Positions 661 through 23,752 of a stretch of 64,000 bases of DNA are shown piece by piece. The stretch lies in the IMG/VR virus record IMGVR_UViG_3300014501_000015, positions 5,710 through 69,709 of that record. One strand, 5' to 3'. Origin of the DNA: a virus. How positions within the stretch are numbered: the stretch's first letter is position 1; every line of letters starts with the position of its first letter. A model generated the notes under the pieces. The model worked only from the letters and a program-made list of their open reading frames with translations. It was not told where the DNA came from and did not search any database. A program made the translations under genes and the position numbers.

Positions 661-1556
661 CCGGCGATGAGTCGGGCGAAGGTTGGAATCTCATGCTCGG
701 CGACTCCTGCGAGCGGCTGGCCGAGATTGAGGACGAGTCGATCGACCTGTCCATCTACTCGCCGCCATTCGCCAGCCTGTACGTCTACAGCCCAAGCGAC
801 CGCGACCTCGGTAACAACTCCACCCGCGACGGATTCATCGAGCACTACGGGTTCATCCTTCGGGAGATGTATCGGGTGACCAAGCCGGGCCGTCTGTCTT
901 GCGTTCACGTCCAACAGATCACCACCACCAAGGTGCAGCACGGGATGATGAGCCTGACCGACTTCCGGGGCCAGGTAATCCAAGCCCACCAGGATGCCGG
1001 GTGGATATTCCACGGCGAGACCACCGTGGACAAGGACCCGCAGATGCAGGCGATCCGGACCAAGACGGCCAGCCTTCTATTCGTCCAGCTCTACCGGGAC
1101 TCCACCGTCTCGCGGCCAGCATTGACCGACTACGTGCTGATGTTCCGTAAGCCAGGGGAGAACGCCGTCCCGGTCGTACCCGATATCGACCAAAAGACGT
1201 GGATCCAGTGGGCGCACGGCGTCTGGTACGACATTCGGGAGACGGCCACGCTCAACACGGTCACGGCCAAAGAGGACGCGGACGAGCGCCACATCGTCCC
1301 ATTGCAACTCCCGCTGATTGAGCGGTGCGTTCGGTTGTGGTCGAACCCCGGCGAGTTGATCCTGTCCCCGTTCGCCGGCATCGGCTCCGAGGGGTACGTG
1401 TCCCTGCTCCACAACCGGCGGTTTGTCGGGTGCGAATTGAAGCCGTCCTATTGGTCGACGGCTGTGACGAACCTCAAGCGCGCCGAGGCCGAGATGGCAC
1501 TCCCCTCGCTATTCGATGAGGCCGCGGCATCGGTAGCATCATCGACGCCGACATGA
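636..1556 (+). CDS. DNA N4/N6-methyltransferase (beta class)
   Basis: Catalytic 'YSPPF' near the N-terminus; SAM-binding 'LSPFAGIGSEG...GCELK' near the C-terminus. Confidence 0.9.
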   Translation: MPDDFDYVTGDESGEGWNLMLGDSCERLAEIEDESIDLSIYSPPFASLYVYSPSDRDLGNNSTRDGFIEHYGFILREMYRVTKPGRLSCVHVQQITTTKVQHGMMSLTDFRGQVIQAHQDAGWIFHGETTVDKDPQMQAIRTKTASLLFVQLYRDSTVSRPALTDYVLMFRKPGENAVPVVPDIDQKTWIQWAHGVWYDIRETATLNTVTAKEDADERHIVPLQLPLIERCVRLWSNPGELILSPFAGIGSEGYVSLLHNRRFVGCELKPSYWSTAVTNLKRAEAEMALPSLFDEAAASVASSTPT

Positions 1557-2035
1557 TTGAACTCAACGTCGTCGGGACGCCATTCCCTCAGGGATCAAAG
1601 TCGGCATTCATCCGCGGCGGTCGAGCTATCGTCACCGAGGGAGCTAGCAAGACCGGGCGCGCCGGACACGCGGCATGGAGACAATCAGTTGCAACGGCCA
1701 CGCGGGACTACCTCGGCGAGCACCCGCGCCCGGCGATTGACGAACCCATCTTCGTGGCGATGCATTTCCGTTTCGCACTTACCTCCGATCGGTACAGATC
1801 GCGCCACCGTTCCCGCCCGGATTTGAGCAAGCTGATCCGCGCTACCGAAGACGCGATGGTCGACGGAGGACTCCTGAAGGATGACTCGTGCATCTTCGCG
1901 ATGTCGGCGTCGAAGGTCTACGCCCACGACGAACCTCCCGGCTGTCGAATTGGAATCGAGTTGTGTGGCGACGCCGAGGCTGCCGACCGGGAGATTCTCA
2001 AAGCTCAAGCCAAGCGCCGACGGGCGACGGGATAG
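1553..2035 (+). CDS. rusA: RusA-family Holliday junction resolvase
   Basis: 'GTPFPQGSK' and 'RPDLSKLIRATEDAM...LLKDDSCI' motifs. Confidence 0.85.
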   Translation: MIELNVVGTPFPQGSKSAFIRGGRAIVTEGASKTGRAGHAAWRQSVATATRDYLGEHPRPAIDEPIFVAMHFRFALTSDRYRSRHRSRPDLSKLIRATEDAMVDGGLLKDDSCIFAMSASKVYAHDEPPGCRIGIELCGDAEAADREILKAQAKRRRATG

Positions 2036-2107
2036 GGGACAGCAGGCTAAACGTCCATGGGGTAGGGTATTGACCTGTCCCCCGTATCATCTAGCAAGGA
2101 GCACTAC

Positions 2108-2539
2108 ATGAGCCCGGAAGTCACCGACGAAAACCCCCTCGGCCTGGAGTCGTATCAAGGGTGCCCGGTCACCAAGGTCGGAGTCACCATCGGCAATGCC
2201 GGCGGCGGACTCCATGAGCCACTGAAGGTAGACAAGGCGATGGTCGAAGCGGTCGCCAAAACGCAGATCGGCGACACCCGGTATTTCCTCATCCGCGCCG
2301 ACTGCAACGGGACGGGCTACAAACCCGTGAAGGGAGATGAGGATCAGGTTCGTTACATCCCCAGCTTCCACGCCACCGACACCACCATCATCGACGCGGC
2401 CTGGGCCGTCGATGCGATTAACGAACAGCGCGACAAGATCGCCAGGATGCAAGAGGACGCTGAGCGCGATGCCGGTGTCGGGCGCCTGGTTGACCTCGAC
2501 GGCCAGCCGACCTCCGAAGCCCTGGGGGAGACTGAGTGA
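2108..2539 (+). CDS. hypothetical protein
   Basis: AAGGAG RBS, GC-rich third positions, stop overlaps next start. Confidence 0.7.
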   Translation: MSPEVTDENPLGLESYQGCPVTKVGVTIGNAGGGLHEPLKVDKAMVEAVAKTQIGDTRYFLIRADCNGTGYKPVKGDEDQVRYIPSFHATDTTIIDAAWAVDAINEQRDKIARMQEDAERDAGVGRLVDLDGQPTSEALGETE

Positions 2540-2778
2540 AGGGAATAACCGCGTTGCCCCGAGAGAAAGACGACGTCCTCGCCGAGCTTGCGCACACGGC
2601 CCACGAGCTAGAGCACGAGGTCGCCACAACGAAGGTTCTTTATGAGCGCCGATCACTGCTGTACGAGGAAGCGCAACAGGCCGGCGCGACCTTGGCTGAG
2701 ATAGCGGAGATGGCGGGGGTCACGGTGTACGCTGTGAAGCTCTCGATGGGGCAGGCGCGGAAGCGGCGAATGGCGTGA
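2536..2778 (+). CDS. small HTH DNA-binding protein
   Basis: 'GATLAEIAEMAGVTVYAV' HTH-like; coupled on both sides. Confidence 0.65.
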   Translation: MKGITALPREKDDVLAELAHTAHELEHEVATTKVLYERRSLLYEEAQQAGATLAEIAEMAGVTVYAVKLSMGQARKRRMA

Positions 2779-3419
2779 CCGACGCGGCACCCGACGACGA
2801 CGCCGTAACCGTCGATGGGGGCGAGCGCACGCTGGTCTACATGGACCTCGGCGACCTCGTGAGTCGGTTCCACCCGTCCAATCCAAAGTTGCATTCACTC
2901 GAAGAGATTCGTCGGTCGATGTCGCGGTTTGGGTACACGGAATCCATCCTGCTCGATGAGCGCACCGGACTTCTGGCCGCGGGTCACGGGCGCGTCTCGG
3001 TCCTGTTCGCCGATGCCAAAGCTGGGGCCGAACCACCCGAGGGAATCACCGTCGTTCACGGCAACTGGCACGTTCCGGTGCAGCGCGGCTGGGCGTCGAA
3101 GGACGACGAAGAGGCGATGGCATATCTCGTGGCCTCAAACCGGTTGGTGGAGATTGGCGGGTGGGATGACGCGGGCCTGGCGTCGATGTTGCAGTCCATC
3201 TCCCAGACAGACCTCGGCCTCGCGGGGGTGGGCTACGACGACAGCCAACTGGCCGACTTGCTGGCGCATCTGAATGGTCCGTCTCTCGCCGACGATCAGA
3301 GCGGCGAACTCACGAGTAGTTGGAGTGTGATCGTCTCCTGTAAGGACGAGTTTCAACAGATCGATCTCATCCGCCGCATGGCCGAAGAGGGGTACGAATG
3401 CCGCGCTCTACTTGGGTGA
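2775..3419 (+). CDS. ParB/Srx-like N-terminal domain protein
   Basis: 'NPKLH...IRRSMSRFGY...LAAGHGR...YLVASNRLVEIGGWD'. Confidence 0.8.
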   Translation: MTDAAPDDDAVTVDGGERTLVYMDLGDLVSRFHPSNPKLHSLEEIRRSMSRFGYTESILLDERTGLLAAGHGRVSVLFADAKAGAEPPEGITVVHGNWHVPVQRGWASKDDEEAMAYLVASNRLVEIGGWDDAGLASMLQSISQTDLGLAGVGYDDSQLADLLAHLNGPSLADDQSGELTSSWSVIVSCKDEFQQIDLIRRMAEEGYECRALLG

Positions 3420-5605: not shown

Positions 5606-5955
5606 CTCGCGACCCGTGAGTGCGACGTTTCAACGTGACAGGTCGGCTTGCGATCTGTCGGGTACGTTGCGGTCCCCTCCCGGTAGCTGGCGGTCAGAGT
5701 CTCCACGATCCCGACGCGGTGGCCGCGCTGGCCGTAGCCTTTGATCGTATAGACGACCCCGTCCGACCGATCGACCAGGAAGCGCCCGGAGCGATGCACG
5801 TAGGGCGGGTGATCGCCCTCGTCTGTCTCGTCAATGGCGATGTACTTGCGACGATCCTCCGCGATGATCTGGTATCGCCACCCGGTGAGATTGCGATTCT
5901 CCTGATAGGCGGAGCAGAGTTCGCGGATGACTGGGCTGTCGGCGGACAACGTCAT
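5593..5955 (-). CDS. hypothetical phage protein
   Basis: 'RKYIAID...SGRFLVDRSDGVVYTIKGY'; start overlaps upstream stop. Confidence 0.65.
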   Translation of the reverse strand: MTLSADSPVIRELCSAYQENRNLTGWRYQIIAEDRRKYIAIDETDEGDHPPYVHRSGRFLVDRSDGVVYTIKGYGQRGHRVGIVETLTASYREGTATYPTDRKPTCHVETSHSRVARWSA

Positions 5956-13494: not shown

Positions 13495-13657
13495 GCGAGA
13501 GACACACGACCCGATTGTCAAAGGCCGAGGCGATGACAGCTACGCCATCTGCGATGTCTGTGTCCGCAAGACGTTCCGGTGCGTGCCCCTAGTGACCGGC
13601 TCCCGTAAGCACGTCAACCGGGTAGTGCGGGAGCACCGGGATAGGGGCCTGTCATGA
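13472..13657 (+). CDS. small Zn-finger-like protein
   Basis: CxxC...H...H; coupled to the next gene. Confidence 0.45.
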   Translation: MVPMPTTERETHDPIVKGRGDDSYAICDVCVRKTFRCVPLVTGSRKHVNRVVREHRDRGLS

Positions 13658-14226
13658 CGGTCACCGAAGGTGTTGGTAGAGCGAGTGTTGATCATTTGCC
13701 CATCCGGACCAGGGCCGCAGCCAAAGCGCAGCAGCACGCCGAACGTAAATTGCTCTGCGTCGAATTGCGACGGAGCGGTAACACCTTTGACCAGATCGGC
13801 GCCCGAATTGGGATCAGCCAACAGCACGCCACCCGGCTCTACAAAGCCGCCCTGCTCGACACCTACCGAAGGCCGGCCGAAGAGGAGCGTGAACTGGAAC
13901 TTTCGAGGGTCGACGGGCTGCTGAGACGCTGGTGGCCGGACCTGCTCCAAGCCGACACCGCAATCGCCGAACGGGCGTCCAACCAAATCCGCTGGATCCT
14001 CCACTACCGCGCCGAGCTGCTCGGGCTCAAAATCAACAAAGTCGACCTAACCGTGACCCAGGGCGGCGTGACAATCCCGGCGGACAATGACGTATGGCAG
14101 CAGCTCCAAGCCATGCGAGCGCAGCACTTAGCGGGCGAATCACCAGGTCAGGCGGTTATCGATGTGGAAGCGTTGCCGGCGAGCCCGAACGGGCATGCAC
14201 CAGAAACGAACGGCAAAACGCCATGA
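13654..14226 (+). CDS. HTH protein, probable terminase small subunit
   Basis: 'LRRSGNTFDQIGARIGIS', 'ELELSRVD.L', 'RAELLGL'; upstream of the large subunit. Confidence 0.6.
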   Translation: MTVTEGVGRASVDHLPIRTRAAAKAQQHAERKLLCVELRRSGNTFDQIGARIGISQQHATRLYKAALLDTYRRPAEEERELELSRVDGLLRRWWPDLLQADTAIAERASNQIRWILHYRAELLGLKINKVDLTVTQGGVTIPADNDVWQQLQAMRAQHLAGESPGQAVIDVEALPASPNGHAPETNGKTP

Positions 14227-14985: not shown

Positions 14986-15119
14986 CCCCTGACCGACCAC
15001 CGACTCTCTCCGAGGCAATGGATGAGTGTCGGCAAGCCTTCCGGGACTTCTGGCACCTGTGGCAAGAGAAGGTAACGCGGCCCATCTTCGACATCGTTGT
15101 GCGGCGGCGGGTGCGGTGA
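14982..15119 (+). CDS. small hypothetical protein
   Basis: GTGA-coupled to the terminase start. Confidence 0.45.
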   Translation: MTPDRPPTLSEAMDECRQAFRDFWHLWQEKVTRPIFDIVVRRRVR

Positions 15120-17833
15120 CCGCCACCCTCGGCTTCGACCCGTCCTCGCTCCTCGGCCTAGAGCGTCCCGAATTCGACAGGGCATGGAAGAAGCTCTCAC
15201 CGAAGGTGCGCGCGGCCTGGTGGCTGTGGTTCGAGGAGGAGCACTCCACGCCCTGGCGCGCCACCCCTTCGACGATGAGTTGCCACCTGGCGCCGGGGCT
15301 TTGGAAGCCCTACAAGTATTGGATGCTGCTCGGCCAGAAATTCAGGGACGCGGTAACTGGGGTATCACCTCGTCAGCTCTGGGCTGTGCCCCCACGTCTT
15401 GGTAAGAGCAGCCTGGCGAGTCGTTGGGGTCCGGCATGGAGCCTCGACCGAGATCCGACCCAGAAGATCATCCTCGTGTCCTACGGCGATGACCTGGCCG
15501 ACGAGAACGCCCGGTCTGTGCGGGACATCCTGGTCGAGCATTCATCCGTTCTCCGAGCCCAACTCCGGCCCGACGTGAAGCGGCGCGACAGGTTCATGAC
15601 CGAGCAGGGCGGCGGCATTGTCGGGGCGGGTATCGGGTCAGCGCTGACAGGATTCGGAGCCACGGGAGTTTGCCTGGATGACCCCTTCAAAAGCTGGGTA
15701 GAGGCTCATAGCGAGGCACAACGAGATCGTGTCGACTTCGCCTATAGGGCGGTGGTGCGAACCAGGCTGGAGGACGACAACCCCTGGCAAATTCTGCCAG
15801 CCACGAGATGGCATGAAGATGATTTGACCGGACGCCTGCTCGACCGGATGCAGGACGGCACAGGCGAAGAATGGGAGTTGGTCCGCATCCCCGCCATAGC
15901 TGAGCGGTACGACCCCGAGAGCATTGACCCGTGGACCCGCATGCGCGATCCACTAGGGCGCGCCGAGGGCGAGGTCATCGAACCGGAGAAGTTCTCAATC
16001 GAGTTCGAGCGCGAGCGTGCCCGCAGCCTCGGGTCTTTCCTCTCCGCCGCACTCCTCCAGCAACGGCCGGCGCCCGCCGAGGGGGGGGAGTTCAAGAGGT
16101 CATGGTGGCAGATCGAATCGACGATGCCCGAGAAATACCAGCAGATGCTCTCATCGTGGGACATGAAACTGAAGGAACGGGACTCGGGAGACTTCACCGT
16201 CGGTCAGGTGTGGGGTCGTATCGGGAAGGACTGCTGGTTGGTCGATCAGTTCCGGGGCCGATGGACCCAAGCAACTACTGCCTGTGCGATGGCACTGGTC
16301 ACCGTTCGCCACCCGGAGTGCCGACGTCACCTGGTCGAATCCGCCGGGTATGGGCCAGAGGTGATGCAAGCCCTGCGCACCGCCTCACCGGGTTACGTGG
16401 TCAGCGATGACATCGCCGCTCAACTCGGGATGACCACGGACGAACGGGACGCGGTGAGTCGCATTCGTAGCCGAGGATTGGCAGGTCTCATCCCCGTCAC
16501 GCCCAAGGGATCCAAGGTCGTGCGAGCGCGCGCCATCATTCCTTACGTGGAAGCCGGCGACGTTCATTTGCCCTCCCGTGCTCCATGGCTCCCCGAGTTC
16601 CTCGAAGAGTTGTCTGCGTTCCCACAGGGCAATCACGACGACATGTGCCTTCCCGCTGGGACTCAGATCGTTATGCCAGACGGCCCGGTGTCTATCGAAG
16701 CGGTAACTCCCGGTGATCAAGTGCTTGGCGCTTCCGGTTGGGTGACTGTCGAAGATGCGGGGCAGACGGGGATATCGCCGGTACTCGATCAGTTTGGTTT
16801 GCGTGCTACGGCCAAGCATCCGTTCGCTACGGATCGGGGGTGGATTCCTTTCCGTGAGTTACGCCACGATGATATGCTGTGGACGTGCGATGTAAGTACC
16901 CAGGATGTGACCGAGAAGCGGTGGCGAAGGGTTTATGCCATCGATGCTGGAAGCGTCGTGCGACTGGTGCCACGCCACGAAACACCCCACGCCAGTGCCG
17001 GGTGTTTGGTTGCAGCAGGGGCGGGAAGATCACCCGCGGGTATTGCCAACTTCACTATTCCCGGTTCCGTCGTCATGGCGACCCCCTCATTGTCAAAGCC
17101 ACTGAGCGCGGGAGTGTCCGAGTCGAGTCTGTCGAGTTCGGTGGCATCACGTACCGGCGCTATCCCGACTCTGCCCAGGTGGCCCACCGCCGGTACTACA
17201 AGCCTGGCGGTCAATGGATCAAGCAAGGGGTCCAGGCGCTTCACCAAGAGGTATGGAAAGCGAGCAACGGGCCGATCCCCAAGGGCTGGCACGTCCATCA
17301 TCGGAACGAAGATTTCAGCGACAATCGGCCAGAGAATCTGGAATGTCTTCCACGGGGTAAGCACGAGGACAAGCATTCTGCTCAGCGTTCTGCGACCGGA
17401 CGATCTCCGAAGCATCTCGCCCTCCTTGCGCGCATCAGGCCGCTCACCGTGGCGTGGCACCAGTCGCCCGAAGGCAGAGAATGGCACCGGGAACATGCCC
17501 AGATTGTTGGAGCGGCTATCCGCGAGCGGACCACTCATTGCCCACAGAATCACGAATACACCGAGGAGAACACACGGTGGAGTAAGACTGGCGGTCGCCA
17601 ATGCAAGGAATGCCACCGTATACGAGAGCGTGAGTCATACCACCGACGCAAGCGAGCCCGTATTCAACCTGAGAACAAGTGATGGCACATACTTCGCTGA
17701 TGGAGTACTCGTCCACAACTGCGACACGTTGAGCCAGGCCCTCGCGAAGATCCACAACTTGGGGGTCCACAAAACCCGCACCTTTGGCGAAGAGATGCGA
17801 GCCACCACAACCGGCAGTCGGATGGCAGGATGA
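15116..17833 (+). CDS. terL: terminase large subunit, intein-containing (905-aa precursor, ~547 aa spliced)
   Basis: Walker A 'PPRLGKS', Walker B 'LDDP', 'TRWHEDDL', nuclease 'SWD...DFTVG', 'FPQGNHDDM|CDTLSQAL'. Confidence 0.92.
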   Translation: MTATLGFDPSSLLGLERPEFDRAWKKLSPKVRAAWWLWFEEEHSTPWRATPSTMSCHLAPGLWKPYKYWMLLGQKFRDAVTGVSPRQLWAVPPRLGKSSLASRWGPAWSLDRDPTQKIILVSYGDDLADENARSVRDILVEHSSVLRAQLRPDVKRRDRFMTEQGGGIVGAGIGSALTGFGATGVCLDDPFKSWVEAHSEAQRDRVDFAYRAVVRTRLEDDNPWQILPATRWHEDDLTGRLLDRMQDGTGEEWELVRIPAIAERYDPESIDPWTRMRDPLGRAEGEVIEPEKFSIEFERERARSLGSFLSAALLQQRPAPAEGGEFKRSWWQIESTMPEKYQQMLSSWDMKLKERDSGDFTVGQVWGRIGKDCWLVDQFRGRWTQATTACAMALVTVRHPECRRHLVESAGYGPEVMQALRTASPGYVVSDDIAAQLGMTTDERDAVSRIRSRGLAGLIPVTPKGSKVVRARAIIPYVEAGDVHLPSRAPWLPEFLEELSAFPQGNHDDMCLPAGTQIVMPDGPVSIEAVTPGDQVLGASGWVTVEDAGQTGISPVLDQFGLRATAKHPFATDRGWIPFRELRHDDMLWTCDVSTQDVTEKRWRRVYAIDAGSVVRLVPRHETPHASAGCLVAAGAGRSPAGIANFTIPGSVVMATPSLSKPLSAGVSESSLSSSVASRTGAIPTLPRWPTAGTTSLAVNGSSKGSRRFTKRYGKRATGRSPRAGTSIIGTKISATIGQRIWNVFHGVSTRTSILLSVLRPDDLRSISPSLRASGRSPWRGTSRPKAENGTGNMPRLLERLSASGPLIAHRITNTPRRTHGGVRLAVANARNATVYESVSHTTDASEPVFNLRTSDGTYFADGVLVHNCDTLSQALAKIHNLGVHKTRTFGEEMRATTTGSRMAG
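16646..17719 (+). mobile_element. intein (358 aa) in the TerL nuclease motif
   Basis: Block A 'CLPAGTQI', block B 'ATAKHPF', blocks F/G 'PVFNL...YFADGVLVHN', Cys at +1. Confidence 0.92.
16879..17682 (+). CDS. HNH homing endonuclease nested in the -1 frame inside the intein (start GTG 16879 or 16885)
   Basis: Two Cys-rich Zn motifs; 'LHQEVW..NGPIPKGWHVHHRNEDFSDNRPENLECL...H...H'; C-terminal 'HCPQNHEY..ENT...RQCKEC'. Confidence 0.88.
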   Translation: MDVRCKYPGCDREAVAKGLCHRCWKRRATGATPRNTPRQCRVFGCSRGGKITRGYCQLHYSRFRRHGDPLIVKATERGSVRVESVEFGGITYRRYPDSAQVAHRRYYKPGGQWIKQGVQALHQEVWKASNGPIPKGWHVHHRNEDFSDNRPENLECLPRGKHEDKHSAQRSATGRSPKHLALLARIRPLTVAWHQSPEGREWHREHAQIVGAAIRERTTHCPQNHEYTEENTRWSKTGGRQCKECHRIRERESYHRRKRARIQPENK

Positions 17834-18051
17834 CCGAAAAATGGCGACCGTTTTGGCACGAGGAGGACAACCGACTCGTGGCGTTCAAACCTGGCAGACG
17901 GTTTGACCAAACGATGATAGGAGGCTGGCGAGGGCATCCTCAATCGGAGAGGGCCATAGCTCGGGCCATCAGGAAGTGCCAGAAGTGGTGTGACGGCCAG
18001 AACGCCACCGACGATCGGATCAAGCAGGAGCTGAGCAATGCCCGGAAGTGA
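17830..18051 (+). CDS. hypothetical protein
   Basis: ATGA-coupled to terL. Confidence 0.55.
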   Translation: MTEKWRPFWHEEDNRLVAFKPGRRFDQTMIGGWRGHPQSERAIARAIRKCQKWCDGQNATDDRIKQELSNARK

Positions 18052-18556
18052 CCGCTCCCCGCAAGTTCGAGATGGACCTGCTGGGAGACCACGCATCGAG
18101 ACCCGCTCGTGGTCAACCCGGTATCGGGGACCACTGGCGATCCACGCCGCCAAGCGCCCGGCCAAGTTTGCTGACATGAAGGCACTCGTGGGAGACCAGC
18201 CCGAGGCGTGGGACGCCTGGTACACCGCCGGGCTGGTGGCACCGGACGGGAGCACCGATGAGATGCCCTACGGCGCCATCGTGGCCACCTGCACGCTGAC
18301 CGACGTGATCCCGATGGTAGATGAGATCCCGCCCCAAGATGAGTGGCGAGAGCCATGGGGCTGCATGACCATTGAGCCGTGGCCGATCGAGTTCTGGTGG
18401 CCGGGATTCGGGTCAGCCGAGGGCAAGTACCGGGGCGACCAGCGCCCCTACGGCGACTTCGCTCCCGGCCGCTTCGCCTGGCTGCTCGACAACATCGAAC
18501 GGATCGAACCGAGGCCGACCCCGGGCCGACAGGGATTGTGGGAGGTGAGCGACTGA
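18038..18556 (+). CDS. ASCH-like protein with atypical N-terminus
   Basis: 'IETRSWSTRYRGPLAIHAAKR...GAIVA...GDFAPGRFAWLL...GRQGLW'. Confidence 0.7.
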   Translation: MPGSDRSPQVRDGPAGRPRIETRSWSTRYRGPLAIHAAKRPAKFADMKALVGDQPEAWDAWYTAGLVAPDGSTDEMPYGAIVATCTLTDVIPMVDEIPPQDEWREPWGCMTIEPWPIEFWWPGFGSAEGKYRGDQRPYGDFAPGRFAWLLDNIERIEPRPTPGRQGLWEVSD

Positions 18557-20540: not shown

Positions 20541-20845
20541 CCACCTTCCCTCACTCATTCTGGTGGTTCGTCGTTGACGCCCTGGCCGTCGCGCGGCTCT
20601 CCCGTCTCATCGCGTACGACACCATTACCCGTTCGTTGCGCCTGTGGGCCGCGGGTGCGCGACCGAGCGGGAACCCGCAACGTCCACGGCTGGCGGCTTG
20701 GCTGTCATGCCCTTGGTGTCTATCGCCCTATCTAGCCGCTGGCGTTCTCGCCGCTACCGCGTATATCGCCGGCGTCTGGCAATGGGTCGCCGCCGGGCTC
20801 GCGTTCTCCGAAGTGGCCGGGTTCCTCGCGGAGTATGACGGCTGA
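20537..20845 (+). CDS. DUF1360-like membrane protein
   Basis: 'LAVARLSRLIAYDTIT...LSCPWCLS'. Confidence 0.75.
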   Translation: MTTFPHSFWWFVVDALAVARLSRLIAYDTITRSLRLWAAGARPSGNPQRPRLAAWLSCPWCLSPYLAAGVLAATAYIAGVWQWVAAGLAFSEVAGFLAEYDG

Positions 20846-22905
20846 TGGCCCGCCGACACGCGCCCGTCCTTGAGCCTCCCCCTGCTGACATCCCGATCGA
20901 GCTGGCCGCGGTGCCGCGGGTGAACCGGGACAAGCAGACGTTGTGGACCCGACGCCGACAGATACGCGAGCGCGGCTTGTCCGCTCGGTCGAAAGAACTC
21001 TCGCGAATCAACGAGGGGCTAGTCGCTGCGGCGATGGTGATGGACCCAAACTCGTACAACGCGCCGTCGCCCAACGCGATAACGAGGACTTGGCAGCACG
21101 CGGCATTCGGCTACCGGGCCAGCGTGGGAGAACTCAACGCCGCGACGATGTACGTCGGTAACGCTCTCTCTCAATGCAGTCTGACCGTAGGCAAGCGCAA
21201 CCCTGATGGCTCGGTTGAGCAGGGCTACGACGGCGAAGAGCCGGTTGACGGGCTGGAGACGGCCGTGGCTGAGGAAGCCAGCGATCTCATCTCGGTCATT
21301 CGGTCGAAGCGCGGCGGGCAGAGCGAGTTACTCCGGTCATCGGGCGAAAAGCTATTCGTGGCCGGTGAGTTGTACTACGTCCCCGAGGACACCCCACAAG
21401 GAATCCAGTTCGATATCCTCTCTACCCAGGAGCTTCTCCGCGACGGCAACACCTGGACGAAGTACCTCGGCCCTGGCTATGGCGCCGTCCCCTTGCCACC
21501 CGGTGTTAACCCGGTACGGGTGTGGCGATCCGATGGGCAGTGGTCGATGCTGGCGACATCCTCAGTGCGCTCGTGCCTTGAGTTGCTCGAAGAGCTGGTC
21601 GTGCTCACCCGACTTGTTCGGTCATCAGCTATCAGCCGCATGGCACTTGCAGGTGTACTTGCCATCCCCGACGAACTCGACACTCCTGATGATGAGGAAG
21701 GCCCGGACGGTCAGCAATCCGAGGCTATGAACCCTCTCGCGGTCGACATGATTAACACCGGGGCCAAGGCCATTGACGACCCAGCCAACGCCAGCGCGTG
21801 GATGCCGTTCATCATCCAAGGGCCAGCGGAGTACCTCCAGCACATCAAGCATATCCCCTTCGAGGCGGCGAGCCAGGAGCAGGTCATCCAACGGACGGAG
21901 GCGTTGCAACGGTTGGCACAGGGACTTGATATGCCCGTCGAGGTAATTCTTGGCCATATGAGCACGACCTTCACCAACGCCCAACAAATAAGCATCGATA
22001 CGTTCCGAATTCACTTGGAACCCACCCTGCAACTCATCTGCGACGCGCTCACCGTGGCCTACCTCTGGCCGGCGATGGCGAAGAACCGTGGGATCGACCC
22101 CGAACACCTCGCGGCCGGCGAGCCGTACCCCGACGACATCCTCAGCGTGGCGGTGACCTACGACGCCCACCATCTCGTCTCCCAGCCCGACCGCAGCAAG
22201 GACATGCTGGAGCTCTACGTTCACGACACCACGCAATCCTCAGTCAAGATCGCCGAGATACGCGACACGCTCGGACTCGACCCGAACGAAGTCGTAGACC
22301 CGCTGGAGATCGCCGCCCGGGTCGACGCCATCCGGCTCACCAAGATCCGAGAGACCATCGTCGCTCCGGCTTCGGACGCCGCAGTTGGTGTGTCGCAGAT
22401 CGATGACGCGGTCGTCCCGGGCGAGTCGGGAGGTTCACAGATCATCGAGAAGAAAGTCGGCACCGCGGGAATCACGGCCTCAGCCAGCATCGCCGGACAT
22501 TCGGAGCCCGAAGCCGTGCTGGCATGGAAGGTGCAAGCGGCATGTGATCTCACCGTGGCGCGGGCTGTCGAGCGCCTCGGCGCCAAGCTTCGTACCAAGT
22601 TCAAGCAACCCGAGCGCGAGAAGTGGGCAGCCATCTCCAACGCCGACCTCGCCTCCCACCTGGGCATCGACGAGACCACCCGATTCCTCGGCGGCGATAC
22701 GGACGAAGCGGTCAGAGCCGAAGTCTCCACGCTGGTCACCCACGTATCCGAATGGGCCTCTGCGGCCGGGCACACTCACCCGAGCGACGTCGCGGCCGCG
22801 GTCGGTGTGCTGGCAGTCGATACCGTGCAGCTCCACATCACCATCGGCGCGCCTATGACGGTTGACCACGGCGTCGTCTGCGGGATGCTCGATGGCGCCA
22901 CGTAG
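20845..22905 (+). CDS. portal protein
   Basis: Position and size; 'WQ..AFGY...VGEL', 'LFVAGELYY', 'RVWR', 'RLAQGLDMPVEVILG'. Confidence 0.8.
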   Translation: MARRHAPVLEPPPADIPIELAAVPRVNRDKQTLWTRRRQIRERGLSARSKELSRINEGLVAAAMVMDPNSYNAPSPNAITRTWQHAAFGYRASVGELNAATMYVGNALSQCSLTVGKRNPDGSVEQGYDGEEPVDGLETAVAEEASDLISVIRSKRGGQSELLRSSGEKLFVAGELYYVPEDTPQGIQFDILSTQELLRDGNTWTKYLGPGYGAVPLPPGVNPVRVWRSDGQWSMLATSSVRSCLELLEELVVLTRLVRSSAISRMALAGVLAIPDELDTPDDEEGPDGQQSEAMNPLAVDMINTGAKAIDDPANASAWMPFIIQGPAEYLQHIKHIPFEAASQEQVIQRTEALQRLAQGLDMPVEVILGHMSTTFTNAQQISIDTFRIHLEPTLQLICDALTVAYLWPAMAKNRGIDPEHLAAGEPYPDDILSVAVTYDAHHLVSQPDRSKDMLELYVHDTTQSSVKIAEIRDTLGLDPNEVVDPLEIAARVDAIRLTKIRETIVAPASDAAVGVSQIDDAVVPGESGGSQIIEKKVGTAGITASASIAGHSEPEAVLAWKVQAACDLTVARAVERLGAKLRTKFKQPEREKWAAISNADLASHLGIDETTRFLGGDTDEAVRAEVSTLVTHVSEWASAAGHTHPSDVAAAVGVLAVDTVQLHITIGAPMTVDHGVVCGMLDGAT

Positions 22906-23752
22906 GCTCATCCCCAAATCCACGGTCGAAGACTGGGAGGTCCGCCTCCACGACGCGGCCAGCGCGGCAGTCGCCGAGATGCACGCCCATGTCAAGTCCA
23001 CCCTGGCCGCGCACGGGATCCAACTCTCAGCCCTGACCGCCGCGGGTGAAGGGGTGAAGGCATGGAGTGCGGCCGTCTGGGCTGCGGCTATCGCCAAGCA
23101 CGTCACCCCCGTTGCCAATCAAATCGCCACCGAGGCTCAGAGCGCGGCACAGGATGCGGTCCCCGCGGATGCTACGTGGGGGATGCCGTCGAGCGCGCCG
23201 GCCATCTCCGCGACACTCGTGGCATCGGTAGTGGCCGCGGGTACCTATCTCGGGTCGCGACTAAACGCCAATATCAGTTCCGCGACAGATCCGGCACAGG
23301 CTGCCGATGACGTCTTTGCCACCGCGGGCGACATCATCGGTGGGCAGCTCGGGGCCTCGGCAGAAATGGTAAGCAACTGGGCGACTCAGGACGTCTCCAG
23401 CTATCTGCAATCGGCCATGGGTAATACCTACGATGCGGCAACAAAGGTTTGGGGGACAGCCGGAGACGACCACGTAAGACCAGATCACCAGGATGCCGAG
23501 GGCCAAGAGGTTCCCATTAACGCCACGTTCTCCGTCGGTGGCGAGGACCTTTTGTATCCAGGCGATCCTGACGGTAGCGATGAACAGACGGCCGGATGCC
23601 GTTGTTTTACAACCACTACAGGAATTGAACCGGGGCAAGCGATCTACGGAACGCCAGAGGACCAGGACGCCTCACAGGGGCTCGAAACTATCCTCAATCG
23701 CGCCGGCCGACAGACCTCATTGCCGACTAGTCCCCGCGACTACCCGAACTGA
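22892..23752 (+). CDS. phage minor head protein (Mu gpF-like)
   Basis: 'KVW....DDHVRPDH..AEGQEVP....FSVGG..L.YPGDP......GCRC'. Confidence 0.8.
   Translation: MAPRRLIPKSTVEDWEVRLHDAASAAVAEMHAHVKSTLAAHGIQLSALTAAGEGVKAWSAAVWAAAIAKHVTPVANQIATEAQSAAQDAVPADATWGMPSSAPAISATLVASVVAAGTYLGSRLNANISSATDPAQAADDVFATAGDIIGGQLGASAEMVSNWATQDVSSYLQSAMGNTYDAATKVWGTAGDDHVRPDHQDAEGQEVPINATFSVGGEDLLYPGDPDGSDEQTAGCRCFTTTTGIEPGQAIYGTPEDQDASQGLETILNRAGRQTSLPTSPRDYPN

Follow-up and report, generated by a model that had tools for sequence, protein, structure and literature searches.

The large terminase gene (terL; product TerL) in a 64,000-nucleotide (nt) stretch of viral DNA, positions 5,710 to 69,709 of the IMG/VR record IMGVR_UViG_3300014501_000015 and hereafter called the window, is interrupted at its active-site motif HDD|C by an insertion that is best read, with a probability of about 0.8, as a composite selfish element made of a class-1 intein and a free HNH homing endonuclease gene. 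The endonuclease gene lies complete on the same strand, between the two splicing lobes of the intein and in the -1 frame (offset 2) with respect to TerL, and the TerL frame stays open across it. In the family of sequences that encode relatives of the HNH protein the layout is conserved, the HNH frame is under purifying selection, the element is sporadically distributed and identical inteins are found in diverged host genes.

The terL intein and the gene nested within it

TerL is encoded by one open frame on the + strand, 15026-17833, of 935 amino acids (aa) when counted from the first GTG; the product called in the database, P0002, starts at 15116 and has 905 aa. On this long open reading frame (ORF) Pfam recognizes Terminase_6N, Terminase_6C (residues 386-539) and Hint_2, a Hint domain that begins at residue 540. 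The ends of the insertion were placed by comparison with P0003, an intein-less TerL of 545 aa, to which the N-extein is 82% identical over 509 aa and the C-extein, aligned with the C-terminus, 51% over 61 aa, junction included. Because P0003 reads ...HDDI|CDCVSMALARM... where the window reads ...HDDM|[C...HN]|CDTLSQALAKI..., this allele fixes the junction, and the intein is exactly the 358-residue segment given in Table 1.

The residues of a splicing domain are present, namely C1, block B from T55 to H58 (TAKH) and the terminal H357-N358, followed by Cys+1; C1 and H58 do not vary among 55 relatives, and T55 and N358 are conserved there at 90% or more. The Pfam family Intein_splicing was found in 50 of the 55 host-frame inteins of the family, and no Pfam nuclease family was found either in the intein frame of the window or in any of these 55 inteins. 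In the AlphaFold2 (AF2) model, built on a 55-row alignment, residues 1-80 of the N-terminal lobe have a predicted local distance difference test score (pLDDT) of 92-97 and consist of beta strands throughout, and the C-terminal lobe reaches 84-98, with beta strands at 331-357 and values above 92 for residues 341-358. Foldseek placed the N-terminal lobe with the mini-inteins gp41-1, Mtu RecA and DnaB at E 1e-4 and a target-normalized template modelling (TM) score of 0.5-0.56, and the intein model as a whole matched 13 solved chains at E ≤0.001, every one of which is an intein or an intein-like Hint domain. Residues, Hint fold and intein-less alleles all fit a class-1 intein of the Hint superfamily. 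A split intein in a fractured gene was ruled out by the single, open host frame, and a canonical bifunctional intein with an in-frame HNH was ruled out by the position of the HNH at offset 2 and by an intein frame that holds no nuclease family.

The TerL frame between the lobes reads as a filler rich in Ser (13.5%), Arg (11.3%), Thr (10.2%) and Ala, for which pLDDT is mostly below 50 and which has no secondary structure in the model beyond residue 106. This filler is predicted to be disordered, and the evidence supports regarding it as a by-product reading of the HNH gene, which splicing would remove.

The nested ORF itself matches the Pfam family HNH_3 at E=3.6e-15 (55.8 bits, with a cut-off of 24.8), a family that was found in 55 of 55 nested ORFs of the family, and the window copy keeps 14 of the 14 family invariants, including H122, H140, H141, N149, N153 and H162. 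The AF2 model of the protein is confident over residues 70-215. The N-terminal extension carries C40, C45, C56 and H59, which are conserved in the nine closest called proteins (51-64% identity), gives a weak match to Zf_WRKY19 (E 0.011) and was modelled with low confidence (pLDDT 40-63). At the opposite end, the HNH stop codon (17680-17682) falls inside block F of the intein (...PVFNLRTSDG...), and the final 8-9 HNH codons overlap the start of the C-terminal splicing lobe.

These results bear out the original prediction, which had been made from the DNA letters alone, in what it said about the anatomy: a canonical intein (C1...HN/C+1) splits HDDM|CDTLSQAL at the junction fixed by P0003, a complete HNH with its stop in block F is encoded in the -1 frame, as the ORF and the HNH_3 match show, and the middle of the intein frame has 0 stops and no nuclease motif. 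All the numbers that it gave hold, including its arithmetic from a precursor of 905 aa to a product of ~547 aa (905-358=547).

Table 1. Positions of the terL element, its parts and the neighbouring genes in the window (TerL frame unless another is given).
Feature	Position	Strand	Basis
Class-1 intein, 358 aa, TerL frame	16646..17719	+	boundaries from the intein-less allele P0003
N-terminal splicing lobe, ~residues 1-85	16646..16900	+	AF2, Foldseek, Hint_2 match at residues 1-31
Intein-frame filler, ~residues 86-330 (~245 codons), Ser/Arg/Thr/Ala-rich	16901..17635	+	no domain, no predicted secondary structure
C-terminal splicing lobe, blocks F and G (...PVFNLRTSDGTYFADGVLVHN)	17636..17719	+	AF2; block F/G motif
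Nested HNH_3 endonuclease gene, 267 aa and TGA, -1 frame (offset 2) relative to TerL, GTG start	16879..17682	+	ORF; HNH_3
HNH N-terminal extension, residues 1-66, two Cys/His-rich zinc-finger-like repeats	16879..17076	+	closest sub-family only
HNH_3 catalytic core, residues 120-162	17236..17364	+	Pfam match coordinates; AF2 pLDDT >95
TerL N-extein, ATPase domain and most of the RNase H-like nuclease domain	15116..16645	+	Pfam Terminase_6N/6C; ends ...FPQGNHDDM
TerL C-extein (CDTLSQALAKIHNLG..., 37 aa) and stop	17720..17833	+	aligns with the C-terminus of intein-less P0003
Protein with the PHROG label 'RNase E', upstream of terL	13654-14226	+	
Protein of unknown function (phrog_3193)	18038-18556	+	
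Portal protein	20845-22905	+	
Head-morphogenesis protein	22862-23752	+	

Recurrence of the layout and selection on the two frames

A scan of IMG/VR with an alignment of five HNH proteins returned at least 525 stretches that encode a relative, of which the best 80 were examined; altogether 87 sources were examined, the window and L001-L086. In 76 of these 87 sources, namely the window, four GenBank phages and 71 of the 80 IMG/VR stretches, a long host ORF encloses the HNH gene at offset 2, and an in-frame HNH was found in 0 of 87. The four phages were found by tblastn with the HNH protein, which located it inside terL of Tetrasphaera phage TJE1, Acinetobacter phage Highwayman, Clostridium phage phiCDHM19 and Rhodobacteraceae phage LS06-2018-MD07; all four terL genes bear a C...(H/S)N|(C/S) intein and hold the HNH at offset 2, and the nested gene is annotated in none of the four records. 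The 11 sources in which the gene is not nested are L005, L006, L008, L012 (at a contig edge), L017, L020, L027-L029, L033 and L061.

The splicing signals recur together with the gene. All 76 nested loci have block F/G (VYNLTV..ANG.LVHN) downstream of the HNH stop, the junction pattern was matched in 75 (L039 reads LNC) and Cys1 was located directly after a TerL motif (HDDx, NDH and similar) in 72, the misses being three truncated loci and the misaligned TJE1, whose Cys1 is visible by eye. The guanine plus cytosine (GC) content of the nested loci spans 31-64%.

Over the overlap in the window, the intein frame has 0 stops and the third frame has 7; likewise, in each of the 76 nested sources the TerL frame over the HNH ORF has 0 stops and the third frame between 3 and 44. 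When the window HNH ORF was shuffled with synonymous codons, the intein frame stayed open in 3.35% of 2000 trials, and in the family the open share had a median of 2.9% and a maximum of 74%. On the strength of the stop counts and the shuffles, we conclude that the host frame is guarded against stops.

The comparison of related loci showed in which frame the protein sequence is kept. In 18 close pairs (70-99.5% nucleotide identity; the pairs are not independent) the summed differences at HNH codon positions 1/2/3 were 380/318/906, position 3 being the largest class in 18 of 18, and this position is position 2 of the TerL frame, where each change alters the residue. HNH-frame identity exceeded TerL-frame identity in all 18 pairs, and over 2186 distant pairs the mean identity was 41% in the HNH frame and 21% in the TerL frame. 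GC by codon position in the window overlap was 0.64/0.52/0.64 in the HNH frame and 0.52/0.64/0.64 in the TerL frame, with 0.65/0.50/0.75 in ordinary genes; the HNH frame has a gene-like shape and the TerL frame an atypical one. In the family, the HNH frame is under purifying selection and the intein frame drifts but is kept stop-free. True double constraint is confined to the two ends of the overlap, where the HNH N-terminus meets the end of the N-terminal lobe and where the last 8-9 HNH codons meet block F. The earlier claim that ~800 nt are selected in two frames held in part, in that the filler is selected against stops (76/76 open) but its sequence is not conserved (18/18 pairs).

At 17655-17682 the HNH tail of the window reads ..RIQPENK and that of relatives ..VQPDD and similar, with the motif ..(V/I/L)QP..; this tail owes its conservation solely to intein block F, with which it shares its DNA in a different frame. 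An antisense ORF of 227 aa on the minus strand (16933-17616) also spans the overlap and has no PHROG match; it is probably a chance ORF of DNA with 60% GC.

With odds that we set slightly short of even, the out-of-frame layout may be the ancestral, stable and preferred state in the HNH_3 family, and not a passing accident. If so, the overprinting of a free endonuclease gene on the intein linker would be an adaptive design (a free enzyme with its own dosage and a stop anchored in block F), and one of the most frequent types of terminase intein would have gone unseen through gene callers, which rarely report nested ORFs.

Mobility, expression and rival explanations

We infer that the intein would be translated within TerL and would splice out, restoring a terminase of ~547 aa, and that the HNH_3 protein (possibly I-HmuI-like), whose gene is of the free-standing type and occupies the -1 frame between the splicing lobes, would be translated separately from an internal start on the terL message. 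The HNH would presumably cut or nick intein-less terL alleles in co-infection, and repair would then copy the whole cassette of intein and HNH into the cut allele. For such an element, the ~245 TerL-frame codons over the HNH would act as a disordered linker, which needs only to contain no stop and not to block splicing.

The distribution of the element points to mobility. The eight closest TerL proteins (P0003-P0010; 83-69% identity; 545-558 aa) have no intein, and 4 of the 119 other homologues listed exceed 800 aa and contain different inteins (P0038, P0045, P0080 and P0104; 831-985 aa), with no HNH_3 in the precomputed domains of these four. In the sequences of P0038 and P0045 the inteins are at other sites, and the precomputed Pfam domains of P0080 and P0104 include LAGLIDADG-type domains. 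TerL of the window's clade looks like an intein hot spot. Furthermore, three pairs of loci (L021/L022, L030/L032 and L041/L042) have 100% identical inteins (909-960 nt) in terL genes whose flanks (900 nt upstream) are only 82-92% identical, and several other locus pairs show the same trend of intein and flank identity. Identical inteins in diverged terL genes are the signature expected of homing, and point to recent transfer.

Free-standing relatives of the HNH were found directly after terL in L005, L017, L027, L033, L061 and phage PAE1 (L092), directly before the portal gene in L008, L012 and L020 (L017 also has a portal gene downstream) and before the small terminase gene terS in phage BP10 (L091), whose terL has no intein; L006 is an exception, with the HNH relative after a helicase gene. 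Those next to terL adjoin its 3' end, the region that takes up the intein in other phages, and Highwayman, with a nested gene, and BP10, with a free-standing one, are both Acinetobacter phages. As an origin, the entry of a free-standing endonuclease gene, with its target at the terL 3' end, into a mini-intein located there would fit this pattern.

As to how the HNH protein is started, in most loci of the relatives the HNH frame is closed by a stop a short way upstream, and an ATG precedes the conserved core by 4-13 codons. GGAG, GAGG or AGGA stands 5-18 nt before the start just ahead of the core in 42 of 72 relatives, a count that takes the best of several candidate starts and is somewhat inflated, with a background of 159 among 1795 start-like triplets inside ORFs (8.9%). 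The window HNH would start at the GTG at 16879 (MDVRC...), two codons past a TGA, which agrees with the called relatives P0122 and P0131 (M-DVRC / M-DVPC). Because the relatives have their own starts and Shine-Dalgarno sites, and slippery heptamers are few, the best reading is that the HNH is made as a free protein by independent initiation, in keeping with the separate gene of the original prediction. It is very unlikely that ribosomes instead slip by -1 near the end of the N-terminal lobe and produce a fusion of N-extein, Hint-N and HNH, with no free HNH. The constant -1 relation in all 76 nested loci would suit slippage, as would a window GTG without a Shine-Dalgarno site; however, the HNH-frame stop a few codons upstream in most loci, two in the window, leaves almost no room for a shift, and programmed -1 frameshifting is disfavoured by the presence of the canonical slippery heptamer X_XXY_YYZ near the HNH start in just 7 of 76 loci and by its absence from the window.

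Independent initiation would yield a free enzyme, and its function could be other than homing. A 2015 brucellaphage paper raised, for its own nested HNH, the idea of a role in packaging (PMC4422536, in the part of the article available), and the HNH of the window could similarly be a packaging helper that works with the terminase and is kept inside terL for co-expression. The free-standing relatives lie in the packaging module, after terL, before portal or before terS, which keeps a packaging role in play; we nevertheless consider it unlikely, as the closest TerL relatives have no intein and thus no nested HNH, identical cassettes of intein and HNH occur in diverged terL genes, and the domain belongs to HNH_3 and follows an N-terminal part that may resemble that of I-HmuI, Pfam HNH (PF01844) matching only 1 of 55 nested ORFs. 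Quite unlikely, too, is that one of the two functions is dead in the window copy, which would make it either a mini-intein with a decaying HNH relic or an active HNH with TerL obtained by another route. The copy has no close relative on which to test this, no Shine-Dalgarno site at its HNH and an HNH-frame GC at third positions of 0.64, lower than the 0.75-0.77 of other genes; against this, the ORF is intact over 267 codons with 14 of 14 invariant residues, the zinc-finger part and the start match those of relatives, all splicing residues are present and the genome, rated complete, has a single terL-type match for the HNH. That two compensating indels around an in-frame HNH created the layout as a sequencing or assembly artefact is hardly credible. 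The contig built independently from run X1 (a Logan contig) covers 15000-18200 (3201 bases) with 0 differences and 0 gaps, although X1 may be the source sample, and short contigs of runs X2, X3 and X5 match parts of this region at 100%, one of them bridging the junction of N-extein and intein (16531-16681); the runs other than X1 leave 16817-16888, which holds the HNH start, uncovered, but the same offset recurs in 75 other sequences and the in-frame version in 0 of 87. The prediction had likewise held that one sequencing indel could not explain the layout. The contigs of X2, X3 and X5 are of low depth and come from studies other than the probable source; their exact matches indicate that the same or a near-identical phage is present elsewhere.

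Several observations weigh against a homing intein with an independently translated HNH. The window GTG is not preceded by a Shine-Dalgarno-like motif, and the count of such motifs in the relatives is inflated as said above; no promoter-like site was found on the + strand in 16300-18000 by a scan for sigma-70-type sites only, and the RNA structure at the window HNH start is unremarkable (fold z-score 0.44), for which reasons an internal promoter and a special RNA fold at the HNH start were dropped. The decoupling from terminase expression that had been put forward at the outset is therefore possible at the level of translation only. Moreover, 12 of the 76 nested loci are cut upstream by the contig end. 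In the model, the structural likeness of the HNH to I-HmuI is modest: this chain (1u3e) was the best match in VIA-align and the sole one with Z ≥5, at Z 5.7 (below 8), with a root-mean-square deviation of 3.6 over 82 residues, and Foldseek returned nothing from the PDB at E ≤0.001 (E 0.78). Finally, the window has no close relative, and frame-specific selection was seen at the level of the family: a scan of viral contigs with the HNH protein gave one locus, in which only the last 52 residues aligned, a scan with the N-extein gave one distant locus, and the best relatives of the window HNH are a nested DNA locus at 52% protein identity and a called protein at 65%.

If the composite element is read correctly, the DNA of an intein can become joined to that of a free-standing homing endonuclease gene while the two products stay separate proteins. 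A terL of this type is annotated as one long terminase and its nested nuclease is missed. The HNH family is a natural set of enzymes, the probable target of which is a conserved terminase motif.

The virus record that includes the window (69.7 kb, rated complete) has inverted terminal repeats. The genes around terL are listed in Table 1; no small terminase was identified at 13-15 kb of the window.

Comparison with known systems

Nested out-of-frame endonucleases in inteins, including an HNH in a TerL intein, are already in print, and the novelty that the original prediction had tentatively allowed for the architecture is contradicted by the brucellaphage TerL, the actinophage and the dnaX cases. 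The first of these is that of the brucellaphages Tb and Pr (Perisivirus). The 2012 GenBank record JN939331 (Brucella phage Tb) annotates terL with 'intein present' and an HNH gene inside it, and the available part of the article on these phages (Virol J 2015, PMC4422536) describes the terL intein with its nested HNH, for which a packaging role is suggested there. As in the window, the intein sits in the large terminase and wholly encloses a complete HNH gene of the same strand but a different frame; the frame of TerL runs through with 0 stops (13 in the third frame), and the nested HNH has its own GTG with a Shine-Dalgarno site (aaaggagaag). The brucellaphage intein differs in its site, which is in the ATPase domain (...GNRAD|C) and not at the nuclease HDD motif, in the offset of its HNH, 1 instead of 2, and in the type of HNH, a profile comparison aligning just 36 catalytic-core columns at a probability of 85%.

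The frame relation of the window is shared by inteins of actinophages, called 'non-canonical', that carry an endonuclease VII-like gene in reading frame 3 (Gosselin, Arsenault, Gogarten, bioRxiv 10.1101/2025.01.02.630785). This preprint surveys PhagesDB actinophages only and proposes the invasion of inteins by a free-standing endonuclease gene; as described there, many of these inteins are in TerL, the splicing lobes enclose a same-strand endonuclease gene at offset 2 and no structure is recognizable in the intein frame between them. They differ from the window in the nuclease, given there as Endonuclease_7 (IPR004211 / PF02945), whereas the window has HNH_3 only. The clade to which the window's TerL belongs also includes a locus of the published Endonuclease_7 type, L090. 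This locus, the sole match of a metagenome scan with P0003, has a TerL at 728-3343, whose best segment is 51% identical to P0003, and a nested ORF at 1630-2166 with Endonuclease_7 at E=2e-18 and offset 2. Its intein lies in the ATPase domain before TRWHEDDL, and the HDD site is empty. Membership of the window in this group was excluded, since its nested gene has HNH_3 only and hhalign gave a probability of 0.1% for the L090 nested ORF and the HNH profile.

In a cyanobacterial dnaX intein, the endonuclease is an out-of-frame LAGLIDADG enzyme (Phillips et al., bioRxiv 10.64898/2026.09.14.751524). According to the text of this preprint that is available, which cites Gorbalenya 1998 on 'non-canonical inteins', the endonuclease frame is under purifying selection, the intein frame is relaxed and the distribution is sporadic, as in the window family, and the origin proposed there is a mini-intein that was secondarily invaded; dnaX is a cellular gene, and the nuclease and the frame are different. 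The ShiLan-type 'hidden' HNH insertions of phage methylases (Arsenault et al. 2025, PMC11855218) are similar, in the sections of the article available, in that the HNH occupies another frame of a stop-free read-through insertion and starts at a GTG with no obvious ribosome site; in those sections the insert is described as lacking a splicing domain and staying in the protein, in contrast to the complete intein of the window. The fractured genes of Dassa et al. 2009 (PMC2677866), as far as the accessible part of that article describes them, have split inteins that flank a free-standing endonuclease gene, and thereby share with the window a separate gene between the intein halves; their host gene is split into two ORFs, whereas that of the window is continuous.

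The closest structural match to the HNH protein, a modest one, is I-HmuI, an intron-encoded HNH nicking homing endonuclease of Bacillus phage SPO1 (PDB 1u3e). The match spans its N-terminal beta domain and the HNH core, with model residues 66-170 on chain residues 1-106. I-HmuI is encoded in a group I intron and has 15% sequence identity with the window HNH, which adds the N-terminal zinc-finger repeats and a long helical hairpin.

In the full-text literature searched, which leaves subscription journals and supplements outside, no description of the HNH_3 or HDD-site family as nested genes was found. The window falls in the broad class of non-canonical inteins with an out-of-frame endonuclease gene on the same strand. 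As the principle has already been published, it adds a member and breadth to this class, and no new concept. A layout kept by selection across very different phages supports the view that the splicing domain comes first and the endonuclease invades later, and within the class the window family is set apart by its HNH_3 nuclease, its site at the HDD motif of the TerL nuclease domain, its constant -1 offset and its spread.

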